Shown here piece after piece: positions 9,608 to 36,075 of a stretch of DNA of 61,106 nt. The notes under the pieces are model-generated. The model did not search any database, was not told where the DNA came from, and saw nothing but the letters and a program-made list of their open reading frames with translations. The DNA is from a virus (lineage: Duplodnaviria; Caudoviricetes): positions 1 to 61,106 of IMG/VR virus record IMGVR_UViG_3300027969_000110; one strand, given 5' to 3'. Position numbers and translations under genes: made by a program. Position 1 is the stretch's first letter, and every line of letters begins with the position of its first letter.

Positions 9608-11092
9608 ATGAGTTCCACCTTTACCCCCAACAAGAACCTCAACAAGCCCGCTCGCGGCGATCTCCCCGGCACATGGGATACTCCCGTCAACTATGACTGG
9701 GACTACATTGATGATGCTTTTGGCGGTTACGTTCTGTTCTCGGCCACCGCAGGCGGCTCCCACACACTCACATCTGGCAAAGATGACCCGTACAGCTATA
9801 TTCCGCTAGTCATAGAAATTGCGGGCGTTCAGAATGCCAATCTCACATATATCATTCCTGCCAATGTTGGCGGCCAATGGATTGTAAAAAATTCAGCTAC
9901 TGATGGGTCTGGTGGCCCCTATACAACTACTTTCACCACCGATACCCCCTTTTCCCCCACTAGTGTTGTGGTAGAGAAGGGCACTTCTAACCATATCTAC
10001 ACAAATCAGGGCAGAGTTTACTCCGTTAGCGCGCCAGTCGTCTCATCAACCTACCAAAATGTTAATAAGCTCATCAACGGCAATATGCTTGTTGACCAGC
10101 GTGGCGCTGGAACGACTCCTGTAACAGGTGCAGGAAGAATATACACAGTTGATCGTTGGTATTCTTATGCCTCTACGTCTGGAAAAATGACTGTTCAGAA
10201 GGTGACAAGTAGCACCTCCGGTTCATCTACGATTGGGTTTCCTTCATACCTTTATGTTGTGCCTACATCCAGTTTTACACCCGGCGCTACTGATACTTAC
10301 GGCGTAGGTCAGATAATCGAAGGGTTGAATATGGCTGATCTTGGCTGGGGATATCCCGGCGCTCAAAGTGTCACGCTTTCCTTTTGGGTTAGCGCACAAG
10401 ATGCAGGAACTTGGGGAGGCTGTATTTCAAATGGAGCGGAAAATTATTACTATCCATTTTCGTACTATACAGTAGGTGGTTGGCAATACATACAACTGAC
10501 AATTCCCGGCCCAACAACCGGAACTTGGTCTATAGACAATAATAAAGGCATGTTCGTTTATTTTTCTGTTGGGACCGGAGCAACTATTTCCGGCACACCG
10601 GGAGCTTGGGTCGCTGCCTCTCGTTTGTCAGCAACTGGTGCCAATTCTATTTTTACAAGCGCCAGTGTTTGGCGCGTAACAGGGGTACAACTTGAAGTTG
10701 GTATTTCAGCAACTCCTTATCAAAATCAAATTTACAGCGATCAGTTAGCTGAATGTCAAAGGTACTATTATAAGACCTACAATCAGAACCAATATGCTGG
10801 CGCGGCCCCATCCGTGACAACCTATCGGGCAAGAGCATATTCTGGAACGGCTGGTTCTGCTTATGCCGCCGCGGTTGTACAATTCCCCGTTCTAATGCGA
10901 ACTACGCCAACTGTAACGCTGTATAACCCCATTACAGGCGGCACTAATAGTTGGTATAATTCAGATGACACTACAAATGCGGTAGCATCTGTTGGAAACG
11001 CTTTGGACAATGCTGTTGCTGTAGAATCGGCTGTCCTAACTCCAAACAACTCTTACTTCTTCCAGATTGTTGCGAACTCGGAGTTTACCTGA
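9608..11092 (+). CDS. Tail fibre/receptor-binding protein
   Basis: N-terminal NLNKPARGD..GTW anchor; NKLINGNM.VDQRG...DRW and GVQLEVG..ATPY...LAECQRYY motifs common in phage tail fibre carbohydrate-binding modules. Confidence 0.7.
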   Translation: MSSTFTPNKNLNKPARGDLPGTWDTPVNYDWDYIDDAFGGYVLFSATAGGSHTLTSGKDDPYSYIPLVIEIAGVQNANLTYIIPANVGGQWIVKNSATDGSGGPYTTTFTTDTPFSPTSVVVEKGTSNHIYTNQGRVYSVSAPVVSSTYQNVNKLINGNMLVDQRGAGTTPVTGAGRIYTVDRWYSYASTSGKMTVQKVTSSTSGSSTIGFPSYLYVVPTSSFTPGATDTYGVGQIIEGLNMADLGWGYPGAQSVTLSFWVSAQDAGTWGGCISNGAENYYYPFSYYTVGGWQYIQLTIPGPTTGTWSIDNNKGMFVYFSVGTGATISGTPGAWVAASRLSATGANSIFTSASVWRVTGVQLEVGISATPYQNQIYSDQLAECQRYYYKTYNQNQYAGAAPSVTTYRARAYSGTAGSAYAAAVVQFPVLMRTTPTVTLYNPITGGTNSWYNSDDTTNAVASVGNALDNAVAVESAVLTPNNSYFFQIVANSEFT

Positions 11093-11654: not shown

Positions 11655-11829
11655 ATGTCACGTTCGTATCGGCACGGATGTCTTGGTTTTTCCAGCACCA
11701 GCATTCGCCGTTTGCTTCAAAGCACACCCATATCAGATCATAATCTGGCCCGTAATCAATTAGCACCTGTGCCAAAGCTTTGCCGTTGGGGGTTACTACG
11801 GGCAGCGGGGGGTTGAGTTGCAGCATCAT
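11632..11829 (-). CDS. Hypothetical phage protein
   Basis: 65 aa, MLQLNPPLPVVTPNGKA..LIDYG..LIWVCF; overlaps neighbours. Confidence 0.55.
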   Translation of the reverse strand: MMLQLNPPLPVVTPNGKALAQVLIDYGPDYDLIWVCFEANGECWCWKNQDIRADTNVTFGRVPNG

Positions 11830-12331
11830 TGAGTTTTTCCTTTTGCTTCATGGTGTAGTTTGGAACGCAGCATCTGGCATGGTGTTCAGGACAATACGAG
11901 CTTCCCGTCTTTTTGACAGCATTGCAGAACAGAAAGTCTTTTGCTGCGACACCGCTCACAACATACCGGCAAGACAACGGGCCAAGCTTCATAAACTTCA
12001 CAGGCTGACCTGTCGGCTTCTGTGCCGTCTCCGTCACCAATGGCCGAATGTTTGCGGCAACGCTCTCAACCTGTTTCAACTCCATTTCTTTGAGGCGAGC
12101 TTCCCCTACACGGACGATCTTTCTGTCCATCTTCGTAGCGTTGGCCTTCATCGCAGAAACGCGCCTCTGGAGGCTTTTGTAGCCGATGGCGTGATTGGCG
12201 CGCAGTCTGTGGAGCTTCCCGGCTACGACGTTGCGGGAGACACTTATGGCCTCCGCAATTTCTGTGGCGGTCTTCCCGTCTTCCCACATCTTGATGACTA
12301 GTTTTTCGTTTTCTGTAGCTTTGGAGATCAT
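11756..12331 (-). CDS. gcrA: GcrA-like cell-cycle transcription regulator
   Basis: N-terminal HTH (KMWEDGKTATEIAEAISVSRNVVAGKLHRL) and C-terminal L...SCRY...FLFCN......SYCPEH motif of GcrA; ATG 12331 with AGGA RBS. Confidence 0.85.
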   Translation of the reverse strand: MISKATENEKLVIKMWEDGKTATEIAEAISVSRNVVAGKLHRLRANHAIGYKSLQRRVSAMKANATKMDRKIVRVGEARLKEMELKQVESVAANIRPLVTETAQKPTGQPVKFMKLGPLSCRYVVSGVAAKDFLFCNAVKKTGSSYCPEHHARCCVPNYTMKQKEKLNDAATQPPAARSNPQRQSFGTGAN

Positions 12332-12383
12332 GTTTTTGTTCCTGTGATTGGTGGCGACTGACTGCCAATCGCCACCGTTGATT

Positions 12384-12758
12384 TTACAATCCAGATACCT
12401 CTCTGTCAGCAGCATACCGTGCGGCAATGTCTGCAATTCCATCCTCAAGAGACTTGATGTCAACGGGCGGGGCAGAAGCAGATGGCTGTGCGATCTCCAC
12501 CGGCTGGATCAACTCGCCAGCGAATGCCAGATAGTTAACGCCGTCGATGTAGTGGTCAGGATTACTCCGGTCGTTGTTGAGGCGTGACAGTTTGACAGCA
12601 TGAAGCACAAGCGCCACATCATGGCTCGTCAAATGTATCCCGGTGATGAGGGTTGCAATGTCAGCCACCCTGTCCATTCCGGCTCTCATGTCGCCATACT
12701 TTGGGTTCCGATCATTGAAGGTTTTGGCAGCTTCGTGCATGATATGGCAATAGTCCAT
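12384..12758 (-). CDS. DUF6378-like phage protein
   Basis: DR...YGD, DVALVLHAVKLSR, DHYIDGVNYLAFAGEL motifs. Confidence 0.7.
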   Translation of the reverse strand: MDYCHIMHEAAKTFNDRNPKYGDMRAGMDRVADIATLITGIHLTSHDVALVLHAVKLSRLNNDRSNPDHYIDGVNYLAFAGELIQPVEIAQPSASAPPVDIKSLEDGIADIAARYAADREVSGL

Positions 12759-14833: not shown

Positions 14834-15440
14834 CGTACTTGTCCTTTAGCTTGCGGAGCTTGTCTTCCAATTCACTAAGGAAGCTCATCACTTCCCGTTC
14901 TAGTTCTGCGATGAAAGCATCATCACGGGGCACACGCTTGACGAACAAGCGCATGTTCTCTGAGAGGCGCGGGTCGTATGACAGGAAGTCACACCATTTG
15001 CGGCCTGTACACGCCATCTGCCACTGCATCTGGATGATATACTTAGATGGCACAGCATCCGACAGGAGGGTGTCGATGTGGGTTGCTGTTTGAGGGCACT
15101 TAATCTCAATAAGCCCATCATCATCCACAAGCCCGTCAGGAGACGCGCCAGACATGTGAATGACTCTATGGGGGACGAACCCGGCTTCGACAACCAAAGC
15201 GCCTACAGCACTCTCGTAGGCAGAACGCGCCATCGGTTCGGTGTCGATGCCGTGTTGCATAGCCGCAGATGTATAGCCTTCTGTCGGCATTCCCGTAAGC
15301 CGTTCACAAATCAGCTCTGCCATATAGTTAGCCCGAGACGCACCATATCCAGATTTTGTTTTTGCGATTACATCGGCAACACGAGAAGCTGTCACTTTCC
15401 CGCATCTAGCCAATTTCCATTCAGATGTTCCCTGTTCCAC
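14823..15440 (-). CDS. YqaJ/lambda-type exonuclease
   Basis: MEQGTSEWKLARCGKVTAS, GASPDGLV, IEIKCP, QMQWQMAC. Confidence 0.9.
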   Translation of the reverse strand: MEQGTSEWKLARCGKVTASRVADVIAKTKSGYGASRANYMAELICERLTGMPTEGYTSAAMQHGIDTEPMARSAYESAVGALVVEAGFVPHRVIHMSGASPDGLVDDDGLIEIKCPQTATHIDTLLSDAVPSKYIIQMQWQMACTGRKWCDFLSYDPRLSENMRLFVKRVPRDDAFIAELEREVMSFLSELEDKLRKLKDKYDGI

Positions 15441-15900
15441 TTTTTGCCTCCTTTAGATAAATCTGACTTACTGTTCCAAAACTGATCCCATACACGCTTG
15501 CCAGTTCCTGCAATTTTTTGCCGGAATCCCTTAGCCTTATAAGGTCTTTAACCTGATCGCTCGTAAGCTTTGAATTATGGTGCAAGTCTCTTGAAACTAT
15601 GGGCTTCCGGCCTTTCTTCACCATGTCGGCGGTGTTATCTTTCGGCGTCCCCAAAAAAAGATGGTCAGGGTTTACGCATCTTGGAACATCGCATGTATGG
15701 CATACAAGCATTCCATCAGGTATTGGCCCGACAAAACACTCGTATGCCATACGATGGACGCGCTTCTGCTTGCGGCCCACCCCCATCACCCCATACCCAT
15801 CGTTCCCACAGCATCCGCTCCAAAGCCAGCAGGCTCCCCCTTCTTTGGAAACTTTCTCTATGATGCGGATAGGTATAGGGATTCTTTTAGGTGCCATCAC
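15421..15900 (-). CDS. HNH homing endonuclease (HNH_3) with C-terminal HTH
   Basis: CWLW, VHRMAYE, VCHTCDVPRCVNPDHLFLGT..DN; inserted between ERF and exonuclease. Confidence 0.85.
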   Translation of the reverse strand: MMAPKRIPIPIRIIEKVSKEGGACWLWSGCCGNDGYGVMGVGRKQKRVHRMAYECFVGPIPDGMLVCHTCDVPRCVNPDHLFLGTPKDNTADMVKKGRKPIVSRDLHHNSKLTSDQVKDLIRLRDSGKKLQELASVYGISFGTVSQIYLKEAKSGTGNI

Positions 15901-16520
15901 TCTAGTTCCTTCTTAGCTGCATCTGCGTCAGCAGCAATCTTCTTCAAATCAGCCACAGCATCCGCATCAAAGACGGAACGCTGGTCTGCATCCAGAGAGC
16001 GCCACTTAGATGTCAGCGCCTCTAGCCCCTGTTCAGCAACGGACTGCATGAGTGCAGCCAGTTCTGTGATTTCCTTTTTGCTCATCTTTGGCGTAGTCGG
16101 TTCAGCTTTCTTTGCTGGCTGGGCCGGGGCCTTCTCGACGGCAGCGTTGCCATCATCATCGACGGCGGCAAGACACAAGATCGACATGAGGCCATAGCGA
16201 CGGCCATAGGTAATGCCAGAACCAATGCCATGAGCATCAAACTTCGAGACAGGTATCTCCAGCGTCTCAGAGACAAACTCACCGGATTTATGCACCAAGA
16301 TCGTTTCGACTTCGACATAGCCGGGGCGAGTTCGGGGAAGCTGCATAATAGCCAGATCATTGACTGCCAGAGGCTCCCGAATCACTGCGCGGTATGCAGC
16401 AAGATCAGCGTATTTGGAGCGGAAGGCCGGGTTGATGCCGTCCTTCGTAGCATCCTCAATCTGGCCCTGCGCTTTGGATAGAGCGACGGCAAGCTCTGCG
16501 ATATTTTCACTCATTTTCAT
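15897..16520 (-). CDS. erf: ERF-family single-strand annealing protein
   Basis: NPAFRSKYADL, HKSGE, GSGITYGRRYGL, DDDGNAA. Confidence 0.9.
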   Translation of the reverse strand: MKMSENIAELAVALSKAQGQIEDATKDGINPAFRSKYADLAAYRAVIREPLAVNDLAIMQLPRTRPGYVEVETILVHKSGEFVSETLEIPVSKFDAHGIGSGITYGRRYGLMSILCLAAVDDDGNAAVEKAPAQPAKKAEPTTPKMSKKEITELAALMQSVAEQGLEALTSKWRSLDADQRSVFDADAVADLKKIAADADAAKKELE

Positions 16521-16927: not shown

Positions 16928-17296
16928 ATGAGACTAGATAGAGACGCATCCCTAATGGAAGTCCTTCGCCGTTTTGGTACAGCCAAATCGCTTGCGGAGA
17001 AGCTTGGCATCACAAATCGGGCAGTCGCAAATTGGAAGATGATTCCAGCCAAGCATGTGAAATACATCGCTATCACTACTGGGATGCACCCCTATCGAAT
17101 CCGTCCAGACCTTTACATAGAAGGCTTCTGGAACCTCCAAATGAACACAGCCGACATAGCTACGGAAATGAAGCTTCCAGAGCCAGAGGTATGCCGTTAT
17201 CTTGCCATGGTGATCGCTCGCAGAAGGACTTCAAGCAGTGATAGTACTATCGCTTCCCTTCCCCCCGTCAGTGAACCGCCTATGGAGAGCGACTAA
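16928..17296 (+). CDS. Cro/YdaS-like HTH regulator
   Basis: FGTAKSLAEKLGITNRAVANWK.IP...IRPDLY. Confidence 0.8.
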   Translation: MRLDRDASLMEVLRRFGTAKSLAEKLGITNRAVANWKMIPAKHVKYIAITTGMHPYRIRPDLYIEGFWNLQMNTADIATEMKLPEPEVCRYLAMVIARRRTSSSDSTIASLPPVSEPPMESD

Positions 17297-19397: not shown

Positions 19398-19922
19398 ATG
19401 GGTAAGCGATCAGACTTTGACAGGAAGAAGCTAGATTTCTATCCCACCCCCCCAGAGGCTGTAACGCCTCTACTGGATTGCTTGTGGCCGCGAACGCAGT
19501 TCTGCGAACCCTGTGCTGGTGCTGGCGATCTGGCGCGTCACTTGGAGGCTCATGGTCACAAATGCACTTCTGCGTTCGATGTGGCACCACAGTCGGATGA
19601 CGTTTGGCAGCATGACGCCTCTTTTATCTGTAGGGATGATCTGAGGGGAGCCAAAACGATCATCACCAATCCGCCATGGGACAGGAAGCCGCTTCACCAG
19701 ATCATCGAGCGGTGTTCCATCTTGGCACCGACTTGGTTACTGTTTGACAGTGACTGGATGTTTACGCGCCAAGCAGCGCCCTACCTCAAGTTCTGCGACT
19801 ACATCGTAGCAGTTGGCAGGGTGAAATGGATACCAGACAGCCCAAACACTGGCATGGACAACTGCTGTTGGTATCGGTTCCGGGCAGACAAAGTTGAGAA
19901 CACGTCGTTCGTGGGCCGATGA
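19398..19922 (+). CDS. Small DNA amino-methyltransferase
   Basis: DFYPTP, EPCAGAG (motif I), ITNPPW (motif IV). Confidence 0.8.
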   Translation: MGKRSDFDRKKLDFYPTPPEAVTPLLDCLWPRTQFCEPCAGAGDLARHLEAHGHKCTSAFDVAPQSDDVWQHDASFICRDDLRGAKTIITNPPWDRKPLHQIIERCSILAPTWLLFDSDWMFTRQAAPYLKFCDYIVAVGRVKWIPDSPNTGMDNCCWYRFRADKVENTSFVGR

Positions 19923-20149: not shown

Positions 20150-20191
20150 CAGAAGGTCAGAAATAAATGGCCTTTGGTCTCAAATGGGAGT

Positions 20192-20386
20192 ATGAAAATG
20201 GGTGTGAAGTACAAGAAAGCGGACAAAGAAAAGCTCGCAGAGGTAATTAATTCCCTGAATATGCAGAAGGTGGACATAGCCGAGTTTCTGGGGGTGTCAG
20301 AGCGAACGATCTATCGGTGGCTAAGTGGGGACAGGTCGTTCCCGCGCATGGTGTTCATCGCGCTTGAGTCGCTACAGAAACAGTAG
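20192..20386 (+). CDS. XRE-like HTH protein
   Basis: QKVDIAEFLGVSERTIYRWLSG. Confidence 0.75.
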   Translation: MKMGVKYKKADKEKLAEVINSLNMQKVDIAEFLGVSERTIYRWLSGDRSFPRMVFIALESLQKQ

Positions 20387-20556: not shown

Positions 20557-20823
20557 ATGTCATTTCAGGCTATGGCTTGGGCGATCAAACAGATTGCCCC
20601 CACAAAGGCGAAGTTCACGCTTCTGGTTCTTGCCAACTATGCTGACGACGCCAACAAAGCTTGGCCGTCGCTGGCAACCCTGTCTCGCGACACCGGGATC
20701 AAGCGATCAACTCTCATCGAGAACCTTAACAAGCTAGTTGAGCTTGGCCTTATCACAAAGGTGAAAAGGTATCGTGGGGGGCACCGCACAAGCAACGCTT
20801 ATGTTCTAAATGCCCCCTCATAG
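20557..20823 (+). CDS. HTH_36-type replication initiator N-terminal domain (short)
   Basis: MSFQAMAWA...AKFTLLVLANYADD..AWPSLATLSRDTG...SNAY. Confidence 0.75.
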   Translation: MSFQAMAWAIKQIAPTKAKFTLLVLANYADDANKAWPSLATLSRDTGIKRSTLIENLNKLVELGLITKVKRYRGGHRTSNAYVLNAPS

Positions 20824-26676: not shown

Positions 26677-27543
26677 TCAGGCTGCTAGATGAATCAGGCT
26701 GGGGAAATTTGCATATCGGTCTGCAAGCAGTTCAAGCACTTTGGGCTGCATTGCCTTAAAGGCAGCCTCTGGACTAGCTAGTTCTGGGCTGCCGGGGCCA
26801 AACATCATTGGCCCCGGCAATAGGCAGACATCATGCTCTATATCCTGCCCATGCAGGGGCTGCTGTGCGCTGCCGTATGTGCTTTTCCAGAGTTCTGAGG
26901 GGCATCGCGCCTCAACAACTCCAAAGTGTAGGCGTCTGTTAAAGCTTGCGCTGCCCAGACAAAATGCCAAACGCTCTAAATCAAGAGGCTCACCCGCCCT
27001 CTTGATTATGGTTGTGATGGTGAGCCTATCTTTTCCGCTGCCACCATTCACAGACACATTGCAACGTATGCTTTGCAATTCTACTGAGAATCCTGTGCTT
27101 TCCAGAGCGTCAATAATTGCGACTAGTCCAGACCCATATGCAAACACCTCTTGAGGCTCAAACGCTGCTGAAAGTGCTGTGCTTGTTGCAATTCTCAGGA
27201 TGGGTCTGGCACGTTCTGAGACTGGAGTCGGGGCCATCATGCAAAAGGCATCACCTGATGCTGCTATCGCTGCATGGGGATAAGCACCCGCAACATCTAA
27301 CAGATAGGCTGGGGCTGGGCCTGTGGCAGTATTACTTGCTTGCACAGCACTGAGGGCTGCTTGCATCTTTTGCAGGCCCTCTGCCCATCCATGCAGTGCC
27401 AATGTGCAGGCATCTGCATGGGAATGGGTGCCGCAAAAAGCAAACGTGCCAGAGCGTGACTCGCGGTCTGCCCAGCGTGAATCCTCTTGTGAGGCTCTAA
27501 TTAGAGCCTCAAGAGAATCAAAGTGTATGGTCTGATGGTTCAT
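26677..27543 (-). CDS. VWA-like partner of MoxR-type ATPase
   Basis: 288 aa directly downstream of AAA; DVAGAYP, IIDALE..G..VEL, IKRAGEPLDLERLAF motifs. Confidence 0.6.
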   Translation of the reverse strand: MNHQTIHFDSLEALIRASQEDSRWADRESRSGTFAFCGTHSHADACTLALHGWAEGLQKMQAALSAVQASNTATGPAPAYLLDVAGAYPHAAIAASGDAFCMMAPTPVSERARPILRIATSTALSAAFEPQEVFAYGSGLVAIIDALESTGFSVELQSIRCNVSVNGGSGKDRLTITTIIKRAGEPLDLERLAFCLGSASFNRRLHFGVVEARCPSELWKSTYGSAQQPLHGQDIEHDVCLLPGPMMFGPGSPELASPEAAFKAMQPKVLELLADRYANFPSLIHLAA

Positions 27544-27555
27544 GTTTGGCCCCTA

Positions 27556-29043
27556 TTAAACGGTTTCAAGCTTGTTGCGGGTGTCTGCATCAATGCCTTT
27601 AAAAATGCAGGCGTCTTCTACCTCATTCCATGCCCAGCCTGCCTGTAACAGTTTTGCGCCCATCACAGAGGCTCTGGGTGATACCACATGCCGAATCTTG
27701 TGCTTTTCAACTCTGGAACGGATTGTCTGCACCCGTGCAAGCCACAGGGCTGCCTCTCTCTGCATCTGTGCTGCATCTGTGATGGGCTGCACTTTGGCAG
27801 GCTCTGGGGCATTGGCAGGCCGGGGCAGGCCCAGCAATCCTGCCTCAAGTGCGGAGTCTGTGTCCCATGTGAGAACGGCATATCTGTCGAGCACTGCGGC
27901 ATCCTGCTGATTCCTGCCCACATACTGCCTATCGGCCCCTCTGCCGAAAGTGTTACATGCCATGATAAGTCTAAAATTTTCATGGGCATTTATGATGGCA
28001 TCAGGAAAATCACACAAACCATTGGATGCAACGGCATTGATGGGCAGCAAAGCACCCGGCAGGCAGGCGTCTGCCTCATCCTGCAAAAACACAGCCCCAT
28101 GTTCTACTGCATCACGGAAAGGCGTTCTCACTACTCTGCCCTGAGCGTCTGTGAATCCTGTAAGTTTGTAAGGTGAATCAATGGCCCCTGTAAACTTAAA
28201 GTCTAGTTCAAGCAGTTCTGCTGCAAGCTTTACGGCATGTGTTTTGCCTGTGCCAGCAGGGCCAACAAGCATCACGTTCACATTTGCCTGCATTGCAGCG
28301 ATAAGCAGGGGCATCCTGTGATGTGCCAGAACGCCTGCCGCAGTTTTCAGCCCTGCGGGTGTGGTGAGGTTAATGTTAACTGTGGCAGGGCTGCTGCTGT
28401 GCTGCTTAATCAGTGCAATGATACGGGATTCATCAAGTGCAGGGGCCTGCTGGGCCTGCTGCAATGCGCCCTGCAATATGTCCAGTGCTGCCTGCACAGA
28501 GCCTGCAACGGGTGCAGGATGGGGCTGGGGCTGCCATTGGATGGGCTGGGCAGGCTCTGGCACGTTCACAGGCTGCACAGGCTCTGTTGTCACAGGCAAT
28601 GCCCCAGAACGCACAGCCTCTGCCCTGATAACAATGCCCAGTAATGTGGCCCTCTGCTTTTCTGTGGCCCATCCATCCTGCTTAATTGCTATGGTGGAGC
28701 AAATATCATAAAAACGCTCTCTCTCTGCTTGTTGTGCAAAGTCTCTGGCATTTTCCAGACGAATCTTGAGGTCTGCAATAATTGACGGTTCAACTGTTTT
28801 CGGTTTGGGCTGGGCAGAATAATAACCTGAGGGTATCGAGCGCATCGTGTTTCCCTTCTCATTCCCATATTGACTGCAATCAATGCCCAGCATTGATGCC
28901 AGAGATTCCATCAATTCAACTGTGAGCGTTGCGCTGCTTAAGTCATGTTGTGTTTTGAGGGCAGCCCAGCCTGCATGTGAAGTGATAGCAGAGCGCAATG
29001 CTGATTTTCCGGTTTGATCGTAACGATAACGGGTGTTTGCCAT
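27556..29043 (-). CDS. MoxR/CbbQ/CobS-like AAA+ ATPase
   Basis: Walker A GPAGTGKT, Walker B FLQDEAD, HENFRLIMACNT.G.G...YVGR...DAAVLDR, SPR. Confidence 0.9.
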   Translation of the reverse strand: MANTRYRYDQTGKSALRSAITSHAGWAALKTQHDLSSATLTVELMESLASMLGIDCSQYGNEKGNTMRSIPSGYYSAQPKPKTVEPSIIADLKIRLENARDFAQQAERERFYDICSTIAIKQDGWATEKQRATLLGIVIRAEAVRSGALPVTTEPVQPVNVPEPAQPIQWQPQPHPAPVAGSVQAALDILQGALQQAQQAPALDESRIIALIKQHSSSPATVNINLTTPAGLKTAAGVLAHHRMPLLIAAMQANVNVMLVGPAGTGKTHAVKLAAELLELDFKFTGAIDSPYKLTGFTDAQGRVVRTPFRDAVEHGAVFLQDEADACLPGALLPINAVASNGLCDFPDAIINAHENFRLIMACNTFGRGADRQYVGRNQQDAAVLDRYAVLTWDTDSALEAGLLGLPRPANAPEPAKVQPITDAAQMQREAALWLARVQTIRSRVEKHKIRHVVSPRASVMGAKLLQAGWAWNEVEDACIFKGIDADTRNKLETV

Positions 29044-29073
29044 GATACTGATTCCTGTATTGCTGTGGTTGTG

Positions 29074-29277
29074 TTAGGCTGCTTTAATGATGGTTTGGAT
29101 GGTTTGTGCCAGTGCTTTTGCCTCACAGGCTGCCGATTCAAGCAGGGCTGCATTTTCATCTGCATATGTGTTGCGCCATGTGACGGCATTTGCGTCTGCC
29201 AGAATTGCCAGAGCGTCTGCTATCATTTGCTGAAACTCTGCAATGTTTTGCAGCTGTGTGGTTTGTTCCTGTGTCAT
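29074..29277 (-). CDS. Hypothetical early protein
   Basis: 67 aa, AGGA RBS, first gene after promoter. Confidence 0.55.
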   Translation of the reverse strand: MTQEQTTQLQNIAEFQQMIADALAILADANAVTWRNTYADENAALLESAACEAKALAQTIQTIIKAA

Positions 29278-29334
29278 GTAACGTTCCTATACTTGAGCAT
29301 TGCTATAAGCAGGGCACAATGCCCCTGCACAGAA

Positions 29335-29363
29335 AATATGGCATTTTCTTCTATATGTGTCAA
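29335..29363 (-). promoter_or_regulatory. sigma70-like early promoter
   Basis: TTGACA-N17-CATATT on - strand upstream of 29277. Confidence 0.6.
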
Positions 29364-29433
29364 ATGGTCATGTGATGGGCCTGCCGTTATGGTATTATGT
29401 GAACAATATCAAAGGCATGGATGGGGCAGATAC

Positions 29434-30069
29434 ATGGCAGGCAAAGCAGCATCGCGCACAGCCTCTGGCACGTTGAAATCAGAACGATTCACAGGGCAGC
29501 AAATGAACGCTGCTCTAACAGGGGCATTGCCATCATTAAAGGCAGAGAGAGAGAGAAGAGAGGGAGCAGGCAGGAAATACACATATACAAGAGAGAGGTT
29601 TGATAGGGTGCTGGCCCACATGGCAGCAGGAAAGACTCAGAATGAGGCTCTGGCAGTTGAGGGCATTGCGCCCACAACATTCTGGGACTGGACACAGAGA
29701 GCTGATGGGGATGCGGCAGAGGCTGCTTATTGTCGTGCCAGCCTCACGCGCGCAAAGCACATGCTAGCAGATCACACATGGTCTGAGGCTCTTGACGTGC
29801 CCCGGCAGCTTTACGCTCAGGCAATATCGGGTGCTGGCACTGTAGACTCTGCCACAGTGCAGGCTGCCAAACTGCTAACAGACTCTCTGTGGAGATATGC
29901 AGAGCGTTTGCGCCCAGAAGCATATGCCGACAAGCAAAAAGAGCTGCCAGTAATGACGGTTACTAACAATAACTTGACAATATCGGGGCATGATTTGTCA
30001 CCTGAGCAAAGAGGGCAGCTGAGAGAGCTATTGCTAAGCTCAAGCAAAGGCACTGTCATTGATGGGTGA
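29434..30069 (+). CDS. terS: Terminase small subunit (Sf6/P22-like)
   Basis: YT.E.FDRVL..MA.G HTH, TFWDW, Y.RA, VQAAKL..DSL...AERLRPE.Y.DK; upstream of terL. Confidence 0.75.
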   Translation: MAGKAASRTASGTLKSERFTGQQMNAALTGALPSLKAERERREGAGRKYTYTRERFDRVLAHMAAGKTQNEALAVEGIAPTTFWDWTQRADGDAAEAAYCRASLTRAKHMLADHTWSEALDVPRQLYAQAISGAGTVDSATVQAAKLLTDSLWRYAERLRPEAYADKQKELPVMTVTNNNLTISGHDLSPEQRGQLRELLLSSSKGTVIDG

Positions 30070-30237
30070 TGCCATTGCCGTGATACAGTTTCACAGGAAC
30101 TGTTTAGAGCGTCACTGAATAGGGTCTAGCATTGGCAGGTATATGGGTAGCCGGGGCATCAATGTTCGACAAACGGACACTGTTTGTTCCTTTGCCAAAC
30201 GTGCCAATGGACATAGCAAGAACAGATAGCGAACCAA

Positions 30238-30253
30238 TGTTTCACGTGAAACA
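30238..30253. promoter_or_regulatory. parS: parS site 1
   Basis: Perfect palindrome TGTTTCACGTGAAACA, the consensus chromosomal ParB site. Confidence 0.85.
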
Positions 30254-30750
30254 ATAGCTAAGGCCATGTTGCGTCTGGCACGTCAATACAACCCAGAGTT
30301 GAGAGATTGGCAATGGTGGCAAGAAACACGGGGGTAGTACAACCTCAGGTTGCATTAGACTTGAGCATAGCCTTTGCGTGTTGCTATGTTAGTGTTGAGT
30401 GCTTGGCCTTTGCTTTGACACGGATTTGCTAGAGCTTTGCTTTGGCAGGATCGGTTTGGTTCCCAGCCAGAGACCGACCCCACAACCCTTTGGGGAAAGG
30501 CCCCCCGGCCAGTTTAGGTTCCCCGCCTCCCCCTCAAATTTCTCCATATATCCAAATTTCATTACGCCCCCTCAAATCTCCCAAAAACATTGGTTTTTAA
30601 TAGCGCATATACCCCCCAAAATTTTCCCAAAAAATTCCCCCAATCCTTATTGCTCTGCTCAGGTACCTCCCCTACATGCTGTACCCTGACTCTCTATACA
30701 GTGAGGCATTCCCTGCTACCCCAGCATTTAGGGTTACTCGGTCCTATGGA

Positions 30751-30766
30751 TGTTTCACGTGAAACA
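30751..30766. promoter_or_regulatory. parS: parS site 2
   Basis: TGTTTCACGTGAAACA. Confidence 0.85.
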
Positions 30767-30999
30767 CTATGGGGTATGACCGTTACCAGACCCATTCCGG
30801 CACCCCCTGACGCGCCAGCACGGTCAACACTGGCAGGGCAAATGTTTGAGCGAGTGGGGTCTACCCACACCCCCGGTCTACCCGGCGTTTGCCTTAAACT
30901 ACCGCTCAATTGCTGTGGTGGGCTGGGCGAGAGGTCCAGCATCTCAGCTTCTGTTGATCAGACAGGGCCTCACTGGTCTTCCCAGCCACCTATCCGCAT

Positions 31000-31548
31000 T
31001 TAGCATGAAGATGTTTCACGTGAAACACTACGCGCCAGTTCAGCCAAATGCTCTGTGTGCCTTTCGCCGCAATGCTCTTTTAGATCGAGCTTGCGAATGA
31101 AAGGGTGCTTCCCGCTCATTGCGTTGGCATCATCAAACACTGTCACTGGCTCGTACCTGACCGCATGTGGATGCTCAGGCGATGGCACGGGAACCATTTT
31201 CCATACTCCGCGCTGCATCCCAGCAAACCGATCCATTGGGTCAACGGGTATCAACCTATCCGGCATTTGAGTAGGGGAACCCACTATTGGCATAGGTACA
31301 GGTATTGGCTTTGTGTAGACCACTTCCGTTACCTCACGGAATTTGCCCAGCCCAGTATCCCAATGTCGAGAAAACATAAGCGCGTCTTTAGGCGTCCAGA
31401 CAACATGCTCAACAACCTCCAAGTCCCAACCAACGCCCCATACCGTAGCGTATGGCTTGATGATGGACCGTACTGGCATAAGCTTGTCAGCGGCTATGAC
31501 CGCAGGGGCGGCTATCAACCCGCCAAGAATAAATCTGCGTGTGAGCAT
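31000..31548 (-). CDS. Hypothetical protein with twin-arginine-like N-terminus
   Basis: MLTRRFILGGLIAAPAVIAA; GGGGGTG RBS. Confidence 0.55.
   Translation of the reverse strand: MLTRRFILGGLIAAPAVIAADKLMPVRSIIKPYATVWGVGWDLEVVEHVVWTPKDALMFSRHWDTGLGKFREVTEVVYTKPIPVPMPIVGSPTQMPDRLIPVDPMDRFAGMQRGVWKMVPVPSPEHPHAVRYEPVTVFDDANAMSGKHPFIRKLDLKEHCGERHTEHLAELARSVSRETSSC
31012..31027. promoter_or_regulatory. parS: parS site 3
   Basis: TGTTTCACGTGAAACA, overlapping the 3' end of the 31000-31548 ORF (VSRET). Confidence 0.85.
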
Positions 31549-31590
31549 GGAACACCCCCTTCCAACCCAATCACTATAGCAAAATAATCC

Positions 31591-31782
31591 ATGACAAGCT
31601 ATATTCTTTTTAGCAAAGGGGGCCTTATGCTGCGATCACTACAGCCACTGGAACTTGATCCGCTTGACGAGCTTGAGCTTGAAGCTACGCTTGTTGGCAT
31701 GATCCGCAGAGCATATCCGCCCCAGCCTTTGGCGCGTCGTTCCAAAATCTTCAACATAATCAAACGGTTCTTACAGCTATGA
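31591..31782 (+). CDS. Hypothetical protein
   Basis: Short ORF coupled to terL; start uncertain. Confidence 0.35.
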   Translation: MTSYILFSKGGLMLRSLQPLELDPLDELELEATLVGMIRRAYPPQPLARRSKIFNIIKRFLQL

Positions 31783-33500
31783 CAACCCTCAATCTTGACG
31801 GCAAACAAATTGACATTGAGCGCCAGCTTCTTGAACTGGACCGGGCAGACTGTGAAGATAGCCTCTACGAGTTCTTAAAGCACTCATGGAAATACATTGA
31901 CGCCTCCACCTTTACGGAAGGCTGGCCCATTGAAGCGATTGCTGAACATCTTCAAGCAGTTGTCGATGGCGACATCCGCCGCTTGATCATCAACATCCCG
32001 CCCCGCATGGGCAAAAGCTCGATCACATCCTGCGCGTTTCCGGCTTGGACTTGGACCCAACCCGCCAAGTCGCCAACCTCCGGGCCGGGCGTTCAGTTCC
32101 TTCATGCCTCCTATGCCCAGCAGCTTGCCCTGCGTGACAGCGTGAAGTGCCGCCGCCTAATTGAAAGCCCATGGTATCAAAGCATGTGGGGCGACCGGTT
32201 TGCCCTGACATCTGACCAAAACACCAAAACGAGATTTGACAATGATCAGAACGGGTCACGGCTCTCAACCTCAGTCGGGTCCGCTCTTACGGGTGAGGGC
32301 GGGTCTATTATTGTTGTCGATGACCCGAATGCAGCCCAAGAGGCATTCTCAGAAGCTACCATCGCCACAACGATTGACTGGTGGGACTCTGCGCTCTCAA
32401 CCCGCCTTAACGACCCCAAGACTGGCGCGTTTGTCGTTATTCAGCAGAGGCTTAGTGAGGAAGACCTGACCGGCCACATCCTGTCAAAAGACATTGGCGA
32501 GTGGACGCACCTTTGCTTGCCCATGAAATACGAATGGCGCAGACACTCCGTTACGTCTCTGGGATGGGAAGACCCCAGAGGGTTGCTGGAGGACGGCACC
32601 TCTCTCGTTGTGGTAGCCGATGACGGCGAGCGTATGCCCGCCAGCCCAGAAGCCGAGATAGAACTAGAAAAGCGGGAAGACACCCTGCTTTGGCCGGAAC
32701 GGTTTGGCGACCGCGAAGTTACCATTCTGGAAAAGCAGCTTGGCCCGTGGTCAGCAGCCGGTCAGCTTCAACAACGCCCCTCACCCAAAGGCGGTGGCAT
32801 TATCAAACGCGAATGGTGGCAACCGTGGGAGGCCGAGAAGTATCCCGATATGGATTTTATCATTGCCACGCTGGATACCGCCTACACCACAAAGACCGAA
32901 AACGATCCGTCAGCCATGACCGTCTGGGGAATTTTCTCTAAGGATGTCAATGCCATGGCACCAAACCAAGCTGGCCTTCGCGGCGGCGGTCTGGTCAATT
33001 ACTCCCGGTCCTACACGGAAGAGTCACCAAAGGTCATGCTGATGTATGCGTGGCAGGGCCGCTATGAACTGCACGATCTCGTGTCAAAAGTGGCACAAAC
33101 ATGCCGAGACCTAAAGGTTGACCAGCTTCTGATTGAAAATAAAGCCGCAGGACACTCTGTTGCTCAGGAAATTCGGCGGATGTACGGGTACGAGAAGTTT
33201 GGCGTGACCATGTTTGACCCCAAGTCGCAGGATAAGGTGGCCCGTCTCTACTCCGTTCAGCATCTTTTTGCGGAAGGCTTGGTCTACGCGCCACTTAAAC
33301 AGTGGTCAGAGATGGTAATCACTCAAGTCGGCCAGTTCCCCAAAGGCAAACACGACGATTTGGTAGATACCGTGAGCATGGCAATGCGCCATCTGCGCGA
33401 CACCGGGTCAATTTTGCGGTCGGATGAGTGGCGGTCTGAGGTTCAGGATGCCCGTTCCTTTGAAGGGCGCGGAAATTTGTCACCGCTCTATCCATCCTGA
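31779..33500 (+). CDS. terL: Terminase large subunit
   Basis: INIPPRMGKS Walker A, IIVVDDP Walker B, QQR, nuclease motifs DTAY, IENKAAG, HDDLVDT. Confidence 0.95.
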   Translation: MTTLNLDGKQIDIERQLLELDRADCEDSLYEFLKHSWKYIDASTFTEGWPIEAIAEHLQAVVDGDIRRLIINIPPRMGKSSITSCAFPAWTWTQPAKSPTSGPGVQFLHASYAQQLALRDSVKCRRLIESPWYQSMWGDRFALTSDQNTKTRFDNDQNGSRLSTSVGSALTGEGGSIIVVDDPNAAQEAFSEATIATTIDWWDSALSTRLNDPKTGAFVVIQQRLSEEDLTGHILSKDIGEWTHLCLPMKYEWRRHSVTSLGWEDPRGLLEDGTSLVVVADDGERMPASPEAEIELEKREDTLLWPERFGDREVTILEKQLGPWSAAGQLQQRPSPKGGGIIKREWWQPWEAEKYPDMDFIIATLDTAYTTKTENDPSAMTVWGIFSKDVNAMAPNQAGLRGGGLVNYSRSYTEESPKVMLMYAWQGRYELHDLVSKVAQTCRDLKVDQLLIENKAAGHSVAQEIRRMYGYEKFGVTMFDPKSQDKVARLYSVQHLFAEGLVYAPLKQWSEMVITQVGQFPKGKHDDLVDTVSMAMRHLRDTGSILRSDEWRSEVQDARSFEGRGNLSPLYPS

Positions 33501-33541
33501 CGCAGTTAAGCTATTGTTTTGGCTCGTAAAGAGGGGAAATC

Positions 33542-33754
33542 ATGTCTCGCATTCTAGCAAGCGCAGTTGTTGACGCCATTAAGGAGCCAACTCCGTTCAC
33601 CATCGGTAACTTCAAAGTTGAAGTTTGGGGCCAAACGCCCTTTGATTACGTTCGCGTCTATGAAATCTTGGCAAAATCCGATACAGTGGCAGCCCAAGAA
33701 GGCATTCGACGCTTTGTCACCGAAATGGAAAAGCTCGATCTTTCAAAGGAATAG
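33542..33754 (+). CDS. Hypothetical protein
   Basis: 70 aa with strong RBS between terL and portal. Confidence 0.6.
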   Translation: MSRILASAVVDAIKEPTPFTIGNFKVEVWGQTPFDYVRVYEILAKSDTVAAQEGIRRFVTEMEKLDLSKE

Positions 33755-33759
33755 CTCAA

Positions 33760-36075
33760 ATGCCTATGGTTCCCGGTCTTGGTTTGAATGTGCGCCAACC
33801 AGCCCCTGAACAGGAGCCGCTGAGTGTCGATGATGTCATGGTTGAGATCATTGAAGGCAATGATAACAACAAGATAGACGAAAAAGGGAACATTCTGGAG
33901 ATTGAACACCCAGACGGGTCGCTGACAATCTCTTTGGATGGCAAGCCCATTGGCGATAATGCCAAAGAGCGCGACGAAACCGATTGGTTTCGCAATCTTG
34001 TAGAAGATGTAGCCGAAAGCAATCTTGGCAGCATCGCTGAAGAACTGCTTCGTGGCATTCGCGACGATCTTGAGAGCCGGAAAGACTGGATTGAAGACCG
34101 CGCACAGGGCATCAAGCTTCTTGGACTGAAGGTTGAGATACCCGGCTTGCAGGGTTCCGGCGATGGAGCCCCCATTGAGGGCATGTCAAAAGTCCGACAC
34201 CCCCTTTTGCTGGAAGCCGTGCTGCGTTTTCAGGCCAATGCCCGGTCTGAACTGCTTCCCACCGATGGCCCGGTCAAAGTTCGCAACGACAACAACAACG
34301 CCACGCTGCAAAATGACCAGCTTGCCAATGCTCTTGAGAATGATCTCAATCATTATCTGACCGCCACAGCCACCGAGTATTATCCTGACACGGATCGTAT
34401 GCTTCTGATGCTTGGCTTTGGTGGCACGAGCTTCAAGAAGGTCTATTTTTGTCCGTTACGAAATCGTCCCGTGTCAGAAACTGTCGATGCGGACGATTTG
34501 ATTGTCAATAATGCTGCCACAGACCTGTCAAATGCCAAGCGGATCACGCACCGCAGCTATATGAGCCCCAATACCGTTAAGCGCCTTCAGATTTTGGGCG
34601 TTTACCGCGATGTTAGCTTGTCTACGCCTAAAGCTGCCGATCCTGACAGCTTCCAGCGCGAAAAGAACGCCCAGCAGGGCATTTCCATGGACAGCTACAA
34701 CCCGGACGACCGCGACAGGCTCATTTACGAAGTCTATTGCGATCTGGACCTGACCGGCTTTGAGCATAAGCACAAAGGCAAGCAGTCTGGTCTGGAAATT
34801 CCGTACATTGTGACCATTGACGAGTCTTCCAGACAGATTTTGTCAATTGTTCGCAACTACGATGAGGACGATCAGGAGCTTCCGTCCTCCAAGAAGCGGT
34901 TCGTGAAGTACACGTTTGTGCCGGGGCTGGGTTTCTATGACATTGGACTGCTCCACATTCTTGGCAACACGACAAATGCCATTACAGCAGCTTGGAGAGA
35001 GCTTCTGGACGCTGGCATGTACAACAACTTCCCCGGCTTCCTCATGGCAGACACCGGAGCCCGGCAGAACACCAACATTTTCCGCATTCCTCCCGGTGGC
35101 GGCGCGCTGGTAAAGACCAATGGTATGCCGATCTCTCAAGCGATCATGCCGTTGCCTTACAAAGAACCTTCTGGCGCGTTGATGAACTTGGTCACGCAGA
35201 TGGCTGAGACTGGTATGCGTGTTGGTGGCACATCTGAGGTGATGGTCACGGAAGGCAAGCCCGACGCGCCAGTGGGAACCACTCTGGCGATGATCGAGCA
35301 GTCCCAGAAGGTGCTGAACTCCGTTCACAAGCGCCTTCATTCCGCCCAGTCAGAGGAATTTGAGCTTTTGGTACAGTGCTTTAGGGAAAATCCCGAAAGC
35401 TTCTGGCAAAAGCGCCGCAAGCCTGCCTATCCGTGGGACGAGAAGACATTCTTGGACGCGCTAGACAGCTACTTCTTTGTCCCGCAGGCTGACCCCAATA
35501 CCGCCAGCCAATCGCAGAGGCTTATGAAAGTCTTGGCGTTGAAGCAATTGGTTTCTTCCAACCCCACACTGTATGACCCAATTGCGGTCGATACGGCTGC
35601 GCTTCAGGCTCTTGGCTGGTCGAACCCGTCTCAGTTTATGGTGCCTGCGTCCGCGCAGGGCAAGCCGCCGCCAGAATTGCTGAAGATGATGGCTGAAGCT
35701 GAGAACGAGAAGACAATTGCTCAGGCTCGTATGATGGACAGCCAGACCCGCGCCAACGAATCACAAGCCAAACTTGAGCTTGAACGGATGAAACTTGGCA
35801 TGGATCAGAACTTCCAAGATCCCGCCAAAATGGCTGAGTTGCAGCTTCGTCAGGAAGAACTTCAGCAAAAACAACAAGATGCGATGATTGACGCCATCAA
35901 CCGGAAGCGTGACAGGGAAAGCCGTGAGCGCCTGTCTGCGGTCAAGTTGGCAGAGGAACTGATCCGTAACCCGCAGGGTATGGGGGTTGTTGGGAATGTT
36001 CTCGATCAGGGTATGATCGACCGTCTTGAGACCAACGAGCCGACGCTGGACGGCACACAAACCGGAGAACTCTGA
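33760..36075 (+). CDS. Portal protein (P22-like, long C-terminal coiled coil)
   Basis: HPLLLEAVLRFQANARSELLP..GPVK, GTSFKKVY, GFYDIGL, PLPYKEPS, APVGTTLA; follows terL. Confidence 0.9.
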   Translation: MPMVPGLGLNVRQPAPEQEPLSVDDVMVEIIEGNDNNKIDEKGNILEIEHPDGSLTISLDGKPIGDNAKERDETDWFRNLVEDVAESNLGSIAEELLRGIRDDLESRKDWIEDRAQGIKLLGLKVEIPGLQGSGDGAPIEGMSKVRHPLLLEAVLRFQANARSELLPTDGPVKVRNDNNNATLQNDQLANALENDLNHYLTATATEYYPDTDRMLLMLGFGGTSFKKVYFCPLRNRPVSETVDADDLIVNNAATDLSNAKRITHRSYMSPNTVKRLQILGVYRDVSLSTPKAADPDSFQREKNAQQGISMDSYNPDDRDRLIYEVYCDLDLTGFEHKHKGKQSGLEIPYIVTIDESSRQILSIVRNYDEDDQELPSSKKRFVKYTFVPGLGFYDIGLLHILGNTTNAITAAWRELLDAGMYNNFPGFLMADTGARQNTNIFRIPPGGGALVKTNGMPISQAIMPLPYKEPSGALMNLVTQMAETGMRVGGTSEVMVTEGKPDAPVGTTLAMIEQSQKVLNSVHKRLHSAQSEEFELLVQCFRENPESFWQKRRKPAYPWDEKTFLDALDSYFFVPQADPNTASQSQRLMKVLALKQLVSSNPTLYDPIAVDTAALQALGWSNPSQFMVPASAQGKPPPELLKMMAEAENEKTIAQARMMDSQTRANESQAKLELERMKLGMDQNFQDPAKMAELQLRQEELQQKQQDAMIDAINRKRDRESRERLSAVKLAEELIRNPQGMGVVGNVLDQGMIDRLETNEPTLDGTQTGEL

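Follow-up and report, generated by a model that had tools for sequence, protein, structure and literature searches.

The phages P1 and N15 and the cluster A mycobacteriophages encode their own ParA and ParB proteins beside an element-specific parS site, and the system serves positioning and stable inheritance. Phage phi29 is described as a phage that "contains five parS sites" and that exploits the host protein Spo0J for spore entrapment (Meijer et al. 2005 as cited in PMC2731898 and PMC9437464). In the phi29 sequence NC_011048 we find four exact copies of TGTTCCACGTGAAACA at positions 10445, 15903, 17243, and 18760, and one of them immediately follows the packaging ATPase gene, ahead of the bidirectional terminator. 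Here we analyze the IMG/VR virus record IMGVR_UViG_3300027969_000110 (Duplodnaviria; Caudoviricetes), a phage record which in its full length of 61,106 bp is called the window. It contains three copies of the chromosomal parS palindrome TGTTTCACGTGAAACA between the genes of the small and the large terminase subunit, terS and terL, and we suggest that these palindromes are best read as a pirated centromere on which the ParB of the host would be loaded. The record is classed as linear, has no end repeats, and its completeness is estimated at 100%.

Sites for another host cell-cycle protein are described for the "lytic deferment" phages of Alphaproteobacteria, which according to the available part of PMC9437464 carry dense CtrA boxes in a large intergenic region and have gained them several times independently. 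Neither PMC9437464 nor the pelagiphage papers on the HTVC027P type mention parS or ParB, and full-text searches of the literature, which did not cover Livny 2007, found no description of clustered host-type parS sites in phages that infect Gram-negative hosts and lack ParB.

Results

Three consensus parS sites between the terminase genes

Exact copies of TGTTTCACGTGAAACA are present at positions 30238–30253 (site 1), 30751–30766 (site 2), and 31012–31027 (site 3), all inside 790 bp, and the 61,106 bp of the window contain no further match even when three mismatches are allowed. This agrees with an earlier note on this DNA, which had counted three perfect copies and none elsewhere and had placed them between terS and terL, where they are indeed found (terS, 29434–30069, plus strand; terL, 31779–33500, plus strand). 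At up to three mismatches 0.24 matches per genome are expected by chance, and none of 100 dinucleotide-preserving shuffles reached three. Site 1 has the context AATGTTTCACGTGAAACAATA and begins 169 bp past the stop codon of terS. Sites 2 and 3 have a stretch of 21 nt in common (GATGTTTCACGTGAAACACTA), of which site 1 matches 19 nt, and site 3 is located within the final codons (..VSRET..) of orf182, a gene on the minus strand (31000–31548).

All three copies match the published consensus parS in 16 of 16 positions (Jalal et al. 2020, PMC7383237; also PMC10197239). The available passages of this literature report that the identical oligonucleotide is bound by the Hyphomonas ParB in an electrophoretic mobility shift assay and that the 16-mer forms the core of the GATGTTTCACGTGAAACATC duplex made for crystallography in a study of ParB and Noc (PMC7383237), the ParB species being unnamed in the passage in question. 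In one host genome (G006) parS is situated between mnmE and mnmG, upstream of parAB; the sites of the window are not in such a chromosomal location near oriC and parAB but in a virus record, between terS and terL. The symmetric consensus is the native ParB site in Alphaproteobacteria.

The phage itself appears to lack the corresponding proteins. Six-frame profile searches of the whole record gave no match to the ParB families PF02195 (ParB_N) and PF17762 (HTH_ParB), to the ParA family PF13614 or to the integrase and resolvase families PF00589 and PF00239, and the match to PF01656 reached only 12.9 bits (cut-off 25.4) and is located at the Walker A motif of the helicase. Searching the window by tblastn with ParB and ParA of Caulobacteraceae yielded nothing, and Pfam scans of 40 of its open reading frames (ORFs) revealed no ParA, ParB or integrase. 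The claim that all three are missing thus holds as far as profiles can see. Neither the ParB nor the ParA of a self-contained ParABS cassette of the P1/N15 type is found, and the window shares with phi29 the combination of several host-consensus parS sites with no ParB and no integrase. Host-type parS sites together with the lack of an own ParB suggest that the phage recruits the ParB of its host.

The region is not an artefact of assembly. Logan contigs of X1 and X2, two runs that possibly represent the source samples, cover positions 28000–34000 with no differences, and run X3, from another sample and another study, contains pieces without differences for 29618–30548, including site 1, and for 30774–31098, including site 3. 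As these contigs reproduce the region, an assembly artefact or a chimera is ruled out; with its conserved synteny the region is phage DNA and not chimeric host DNA. In these freshwater samples (runs X1–X4) other organisms are represented by short contigs that match the stretch 28000–34000 only at the parS sites, and among these contigs a form with two sites spaced 19 nt apart is recurrent. Several further parS-bearing replicons therefore co-occur with the phage.

Conservation in related phages

Searching viral contigs with TerL gave 80 loci (L120–L199). In 31 of them TerL is at least 78% identical to that of the window, and 24 of these carry one to five exact sites; in each of the seven loci without sites the upstream DNA is shorter than 2.9 kb. 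For one of the seven, L128, a complete record of 57.9 kb read across its ends contains three exact sites and one site with a single mismatch. When only loci with at least 3 kb of upstream DNA are considered, exact sites are present in 17 of 17, so that the sites are not absent from close relatives, a possibility that the earlier note had raised. In total 74 exact sites were found upstream of terL (109 kb scanned) and none downstream (170 kb scanned), these events not being independent, and copies with one mismatch are few compared with the 74 exact ones. All five longer records of relatives have their sites in a single cluster of less than 1 kb; ParB_N was found in none of these five, and tblastn detected no ParB-like match in L120–L199.

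The order of the elements is constant: terS is followed after 15–300 bp by the start of the site cluster, then by variable small genes including homologues of orf182, and then by terL. A further site is often found 16–31 bp upstream of orf182 or 70–600 bp upstream of terL. In 72 distinct contexts all 16 positions are kept and the information of the flanks is about 0 bits, apart from a preference for A or G at position −1 (69 of 72) and for T or C at position +16 (64 of 72). These preferences extend the 16-mer to an 18-bp palindrome, which is that of the crystallized GATGTTTCACGTGAAACATC.

In a TerL tree of the window and 76 of the 80 loci (four with a match of less than 480 residues were omitted) the loci with sites group in a single clade that shows no informative loss, and a second, separate gain is found in L165–L167. 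L150 and L151 have one site with a single mismatch each. Locus L169, the sister of L165–L167, also has a repeat-rich region at the corresponding place upstream of terL, but the perfect palindrome of 16 bp that is found there in two copies (121–136 and 157–172) is another one, TTGCAAGCGCTTGCAA, and this looks like a swapped binding-site module.

Since the 16-mer is constant while its flanks turn over and no informative loss is seen in the clade, the pattern bears the mark of long-lasting purifying selection on a site that is bound by a protein, with an unchanging reader. It might be argued that the sites have no function and are relics of captured host DNA or short recombination sequences that related phages share. 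Indeed the gap between terS and terL is a mosaic, the gene content between the sites varies, in L136 a split orf182 has a site before each half, and the short contigs of other organisms mentioned above match the window at the sites only. However, neutral 16-mers would decay, which is not what the 72 contexts with their random flanks display, no host-like genes flank the sites, and the clade retains them at a number far from the chance expectation given above. A lack of function is thus very improbable.

Occurrence in other phages

An exact-match scan of viral contigs returned at least 119 stretches. Among the 119 matches listed, a ParB-like gene was found in the fetched DNA of one, and clustering of these matches gave two large groups and 50 singletons.

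Group A comprises at least 28 loci and is the super-clade of the window, including a distant branch whose TerL is 26–29% identical to that of the window and 61% identical to that of the Pelagibacter phage HTVC027P. The loci with a distant TerL among the matches listed number 18 (17 at 26–29% identity and L104 at 49%). A single exact site is located 33–151 bp upstream of terL in 7 of the 18 and at any distance upstream in 15 of them, and the remaining three have it only downstream; as these loci are related, few independent events are represented. Loci of the HTVC023P type with a site at this short distance are L010 (4391–4406), L025, L035, L038, L058, L092, and L118, and in L010 the site is in an AT-rich stretch just ahead of a promoter-like sequence containing TATAAT. 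The cultured phage HTVC027P (L204, MN698241.1) has at 16412–16427 a site that matches in 15 of 16 positions (CGTTTCACGTGAAACA), placed between two convergent genes, gp31 and gp32, in the interval from terS to terL.

Group B comprises at least 27 loci of small phi29-like phages with up to four exact copies of TGTTTCACGTGAAACA each (L006, L013, L020, L064, L070, L105, and 21 others). They encode an upper collar connector and a packaging ATPase of 349 amino acids, the latter being nearest to those of uncultured gut phages and of Amedibacillus phages. In L006 the packaging ATPase gene is closely followed by two sites with a spacing of 34 bp. Judged by these sequences, group B is an extension of the phi29 phenomenon to uncultured relatives.

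The protein that reads the sites

Given the identity of the sites, the host ParB probably binds them in vivo. A reader encoded by the phage would be the alternative, for example TerS, a Cro-like or other helix–turn–helix (HTH) protein or a ParB analogue beyond recognition, and the identity to the host parS would then be mimicry or coincidence. The sites adjoin terS, the window encodes several HTH proteins (16928–17296, 20174–20386, and 20557–20823) and many small ORFs without a family, and the palindrome of L169 indicates that something different may occupy the same slot. The earlier note had named TerS as a possible binder. Yet the HTH block of TerS diverges, with a median pairwise identity of 31% (91 pairs among 14 TerS proteins encoded beside identical sites) and only 14–26% identity between the window and TerS proteins of the second subtype (type 1), whereas the site is invariant, which makes TerS an unlikely reader. 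As in a pac site read by TerS, a repeated motif adjoins terS, but the motif does not vary together with the DNA-binding domain. In addition, the same site, with its match in 16 of 16 positions and its symmetric extension to 18 bp, is present in phages with a TerL of 26–29% identity and in the phi29-like phages, no other conserved candidate for a phage-encoded reader turned up, and the host ParB would be expected to bind anyway. Thus, we consider a phage-encoded reader improbable.

The interpretation offered in the earlier note therefore stands with respect to host-type sites without an own ParB, to which retention throughout the clade can now be added, and binding in vivo is predicted from the sequence of the sites. 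The argument that the sites lie beside the genome end and might enter the cell early finds no support: the record ends elsewhere and has no end repeats, and the TerS of the Sf6 type suggests headful packaging with permuted ends.

The region between terS and terL

The assignment of terS as a small terminase subunit of the Sf6/P22 type is based on Pfam PF20901 (Sf6_terminase, E 1.3e-08) and phrog_1482 (E 7.8e-10); the protein has 211 amino acids when read from the methionine codon at 29434 in the ORF 29014–30069. The following ∼930 bp (30070–30999) are mostly non-coding and repeat-rich and contain sites 1 and 2. Three iteron-like C-rich/AT repeats of 21 nt at 30529, 30567, and 30613 are found there in addition to C-tracts, a TTTAGGTTCC motif at about 30512, and a block CTCTCTATACAGTG..GCTACCCCAGC at about 30690–30750. 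Repeat types and blocks recur in the relatives, whereas the ORFs of this region are short, overlapping, and without conservation. Elements interleaved with parS in the window (30500–30750) and in relatives are TTAGGTACC(AAATCCCCTC) motifs, long C-tracts, iteron-like repeats of ∼40 bp, and a block CTCTATACAGTGCGG..GCTACCCC; the relatives with such elements in the gap are L124, L126, L127, L130, L132, L134, L135, L139, L140, L147, L158, and L164. These non-coding elements may serve as a pac site, as an origin or as an array of promoters. A search of 29500–32000 against Rfam gave no family at E values up to 1, and a scan of 29900–31900 for sigma-70 promoters and terminators gave no excess over shuffles.

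The gene orf182 encodes a protein of 182 amino acids with a Tat-like signal (MLTRRFILGGLIAAPAVIAA) and is a conserved accessory gene with homologues in 14 of the 80 TerL loci. Its protein belongs to no Pfam or PHROG family, and its atlas matches are weak, all below 0.9. A protein of this type with the motif ATVWGVGWDLEVVEH is encoded in the window and in L120, L122, L123, L125–L127, L136, L137, L139, L145, L151, L159, and L164. As terS is read rightward and orf182 leftward, the cluster sits at convergent transcription. A small ORF for 63 amino acids (31591–31782, plus strand) follows, whose stop codon overlaps the start of terL, and the portal gene is next to terL, which was our anchor for finding relatives. 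At the small ORF, ahead of terL, the −10-like sequence AGCTATATT is present at 31597–31605, and it is also found upstream of terL in L127 and L140; no enrichment of the motif TAGCTATAWT was seen across the window.

This arrangement bears on the question whether ParB bound to parS might act in cis as an architectural or regulatory part of the phage control region. IHF acts in such a way at cosB of phage lambda and at pac of P1. ParB could accordingly be an IHF-like factor at the packaging site, a boundary beside origin-like iterons or a repressor of the divergent promoters of orf182 and terL, which would be relieved as ParB is diluted over the genome copies and would thus work as a copy-number timer. 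The cluster begins 15–300 bp past terS and is interleaved with GGTACC-containing motifs, C-tracts, and iterons of ∼40 bp. A TATAAT/TATATT element ahead of terL is adjoined on its −35 side by a site 24–25 nt upstream of it in L127 and L140, and in L126, L127, L136 (twice), L137, and L164 a site is located 16–31 bp upstream of the start of orf182; in L136, where orf182 is split into two genes, it is 18 bp upstream of the aligned start of each. The single site of the distant branch shortly upstream of terL in 7 of 18 related loci, the phi29 site directly after the packaging ATPase gene, and the other palindrome in the slot of L169 can be added. On the contrary, in the window the terL promoter is without a site, the nearest one being 767 bp off, and the close lineages L141/L142 and L148–L157 have no exact site at all, so that the sites are not essential for packaging. 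Number and spacing vary freely, and accessory genes have a hot spot in the terS–terL gap, a fact that could alone explain the position. We therefore regard a cis-acting host factor as a rather unlikely main function. To the same limited degree we credit the more specific proposal that the ParB–CTP clamp helps to assemble a packaging-initiation or origin-like complex or silences the late terL operon until ParB is diluted by replication. If this were true, the phage would read its own copy number and the cell-cycle state of its host via the centromere protein, a use of ParB unlike segregation and unlike phi29.

Gene content, host, and lifestyle

The window encodes on its minus strand a GcrA-like cell-cycle regulator (11756–12463; Pfam PF07750, E 2.7e-18) and, at 19398–19922, a DNA methyltransferase (phrog_799). 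Both genes together suggest that the phage may meddle with the GcrA/CcrM cell-cycle module of Alphaproteobacteria. Directly upstream of terS and on the opposite strand (26677–29043, minus strand) are the genes of an AAA ATPase of 495 amino acids (phrog_249, annotated as "porphyrin biosynthesis") and its DUF7192 partner. An HNH endonuclease gene (15421–15900, minus strand) is located between the recombination genes for Erf and the YqaJ exonuclease, and further genes code for RusA, a Cro-like HTH protein, a helicase, a primase, and an SU10-type adaptor. A scan for tRNA genes found none in the window, which accordingly offers no clue to the host from this side. The nearest cultured relatives by TerL are Roseobacter phages (41.6%) and a Paracoccus phage (35.7%), and a TerL of 65% identity is encoded on a contig of a metagenome-assembled genome of Caulobacteraceae. 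From these relatives and the GcrA-like gene we conclude that the host is probably an alphaproteobacterium.

The gene content looks lytic, and this is of interest for a further explanation, in which the sites act as a sink. Replicating phage genomes with hundreds of perfect sites would draw ParB and with it MipZ, PopZ or SMC off the chromosomal centromere, and the depletion would freeze chromosome segregation and division to the benefit of a lytic infection. As far as the available part of the study goes, one strong parS on a low-copy plasmid reduces the viability of Caulobacter ∼1000-fold and a pair of them kills the cells, with abnormal foci of MipZ (Tran 2018). The GcrA-like regulator and the methyltransferase are other cell-cycle genes, and the sites are perfect copies of the consensus with the highest affinity, 74 exact copies facing few with one mismatch. 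However, a sink could sit anywhere in the genome, yet the sites are always in one region beside terS, and some lineages keep a single site. Besides, a gene product is the more usual way of blocking division, and phi29, the only studied precedent, employs its sites for segregation according to the accounts cited above. Titration as the main function is therefore possible but in our opinion unlikely.

Discussion

We suggest that the palindromes are a centromere pirated from the host and tentatively propose positioning and partition of the phage genome as the main selected function, a proposal that is drawn from the analogy with phi29 and its Spo0J strategy. After entry and circularization or the formation of concatemers, dimers of the host ParB would nucleate on the sites, close into clamps with CTP, and spread across the terS–terL region. 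The host ParA, and polar anchors where present, would then treat the phage DNA like a newly replicated origin region, so that phage genomes would be positioned and shared out at the division of the infected cell in a slow or deferred infection. The ParB–phage complex would also compete with the chromosomal centromere and disturb segregation and division of the host, which is possibly part of the selection.

Several observations weigh against partition. The fixed place beside terS amid other conserved repeats is explained neither by partition nor by titration and would suit a function in cis, be it in packaging, in replication or in late transcription. A maintained state is unsupported by the gene content of the window, which has no integrase and no clear repressor module but only the Cro-like HTH protein. 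A scan of genome contigs (one genome per species, 185,579 species) found only two TerL relatives, neither of them close (65% and 43% identity), and these are uninformative on lifestyle either way. The trait is also unevenly distributed: sites are missing from the sister lineage L141/L142 and from most lineages with a TerL identity of 58–69%, and six of seven named relatives (MW202675, HTVC023P, CRP-901, Pkon1, 023Pt_psg01, and DSL-LC04) lack a site within two mismatches. The other palindrome in the same slot of L169 implies that the slot may accept other binders. Finally, boxes for a host master regulator do not accompany the sites, as the full CtrA box (TTAA-N7-TTAA) was found 0 times in the window at an expectation of 0.42, so that a parallel to the Spo0A boxes of phi29 is missing.

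So far, the piracy of a host centromere by a ParB-less phage rested on phi29 in sporulating Bacillus alone, and owing to this precedent the idea that a phage recruits the host ParB is less new. What is added here is an entire clade of freshwater phages, abundant and probably infecting Alphaproteobacteria, that keeps a cluster of perfect host parS under strong selection, together with related marine phages of the HTVC023P type with single sites, including HTVC027P, and uncultured phi29-like gut phages with several. With occurrences in freshwater, marine, and gut phages the strategy looks widespread and not bound to sporulation. In Alphaproteobacteria ParB is tied to polar anchoring, to division control by MipZ, and to SMC loading. 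Taken together with the near-lethal effect of extrachromosomal parS in Caulobacter, this wiring implies that the phage must strongly perturb or exploit the cell cycle of its host. The finding also leads to testable ideas about pseudolysogeny or deferred lysis among aquatic bacteria that grow slowly. As parS variants differ by host group, with a Bacillus variant in phi29 and the symmetric consensus in the window, they may also serve as a simple marker for host prediction.

When compared with other systems, the window resembles the ParABS cassettes of plasmid prophages in having centromere repeats on a phage genome but differs from them by the lack of parA and parB and by a site that is the chromosomal consensus. 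The chromosomal parS clusters near oriC, as far as they are described in the available sources (Livny 2007 as cited; Tran 2018), consist of the same palindrome in several copies within ∼1 kb. The phage cluster, however, is not located by parAB or oriC, and its copies are almost all perfect, whereas hosts usually include weaker variants. With the CtrA-box phages, in the part of their description available, the window has in common the probable host class and clustered sites for a host cell-cycle protein, but there the protein is a transcription factor and here it would be a centromere clamp, and the window is without a full CtrA box. Like the packaging sites bound by IHF, the sites for the host protein are interleaved with phage repeats beside the small terminase gene; unlike IHF, ParB is a sliding clamp and not a bending protein, and close relatives exist without the sites.

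The closest resemblance of this virulent-looking phage is to phi29, a virulent phage that likewise has no ParB but several host-type chromosomal parS sites and that uses the segregation protein of its host. One of these is in the convergent zone after the packaging ATPase gene, just as the cluster of the window is between the convergent genes terS and orf182. Nevertheless, phi29 is a protein-primed podovirus of 19 kb that infects a spore-forming Firmicute, whereas the window is an unrelated phage of 61 kb that packages its DNA by a terminase. The sites of phi29 are spread over ∼8 kb, are for the most part located within genes, and cooperate with Spo0A boxes in spore entrapment, whereas those of the window are confined to 790 bp beside terS in a mostly non-coding region. 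As the probable host is a non-sporulating alphaproteobacterium, their purpose cannot be spore entrapment. With these differences in mind, exploitation of the host ParB of the phi29 type, which would then include a large clade of aquatic phages as well as a cultured pelagiphage, appears to be the best available explanation for the parS cluster of the window.

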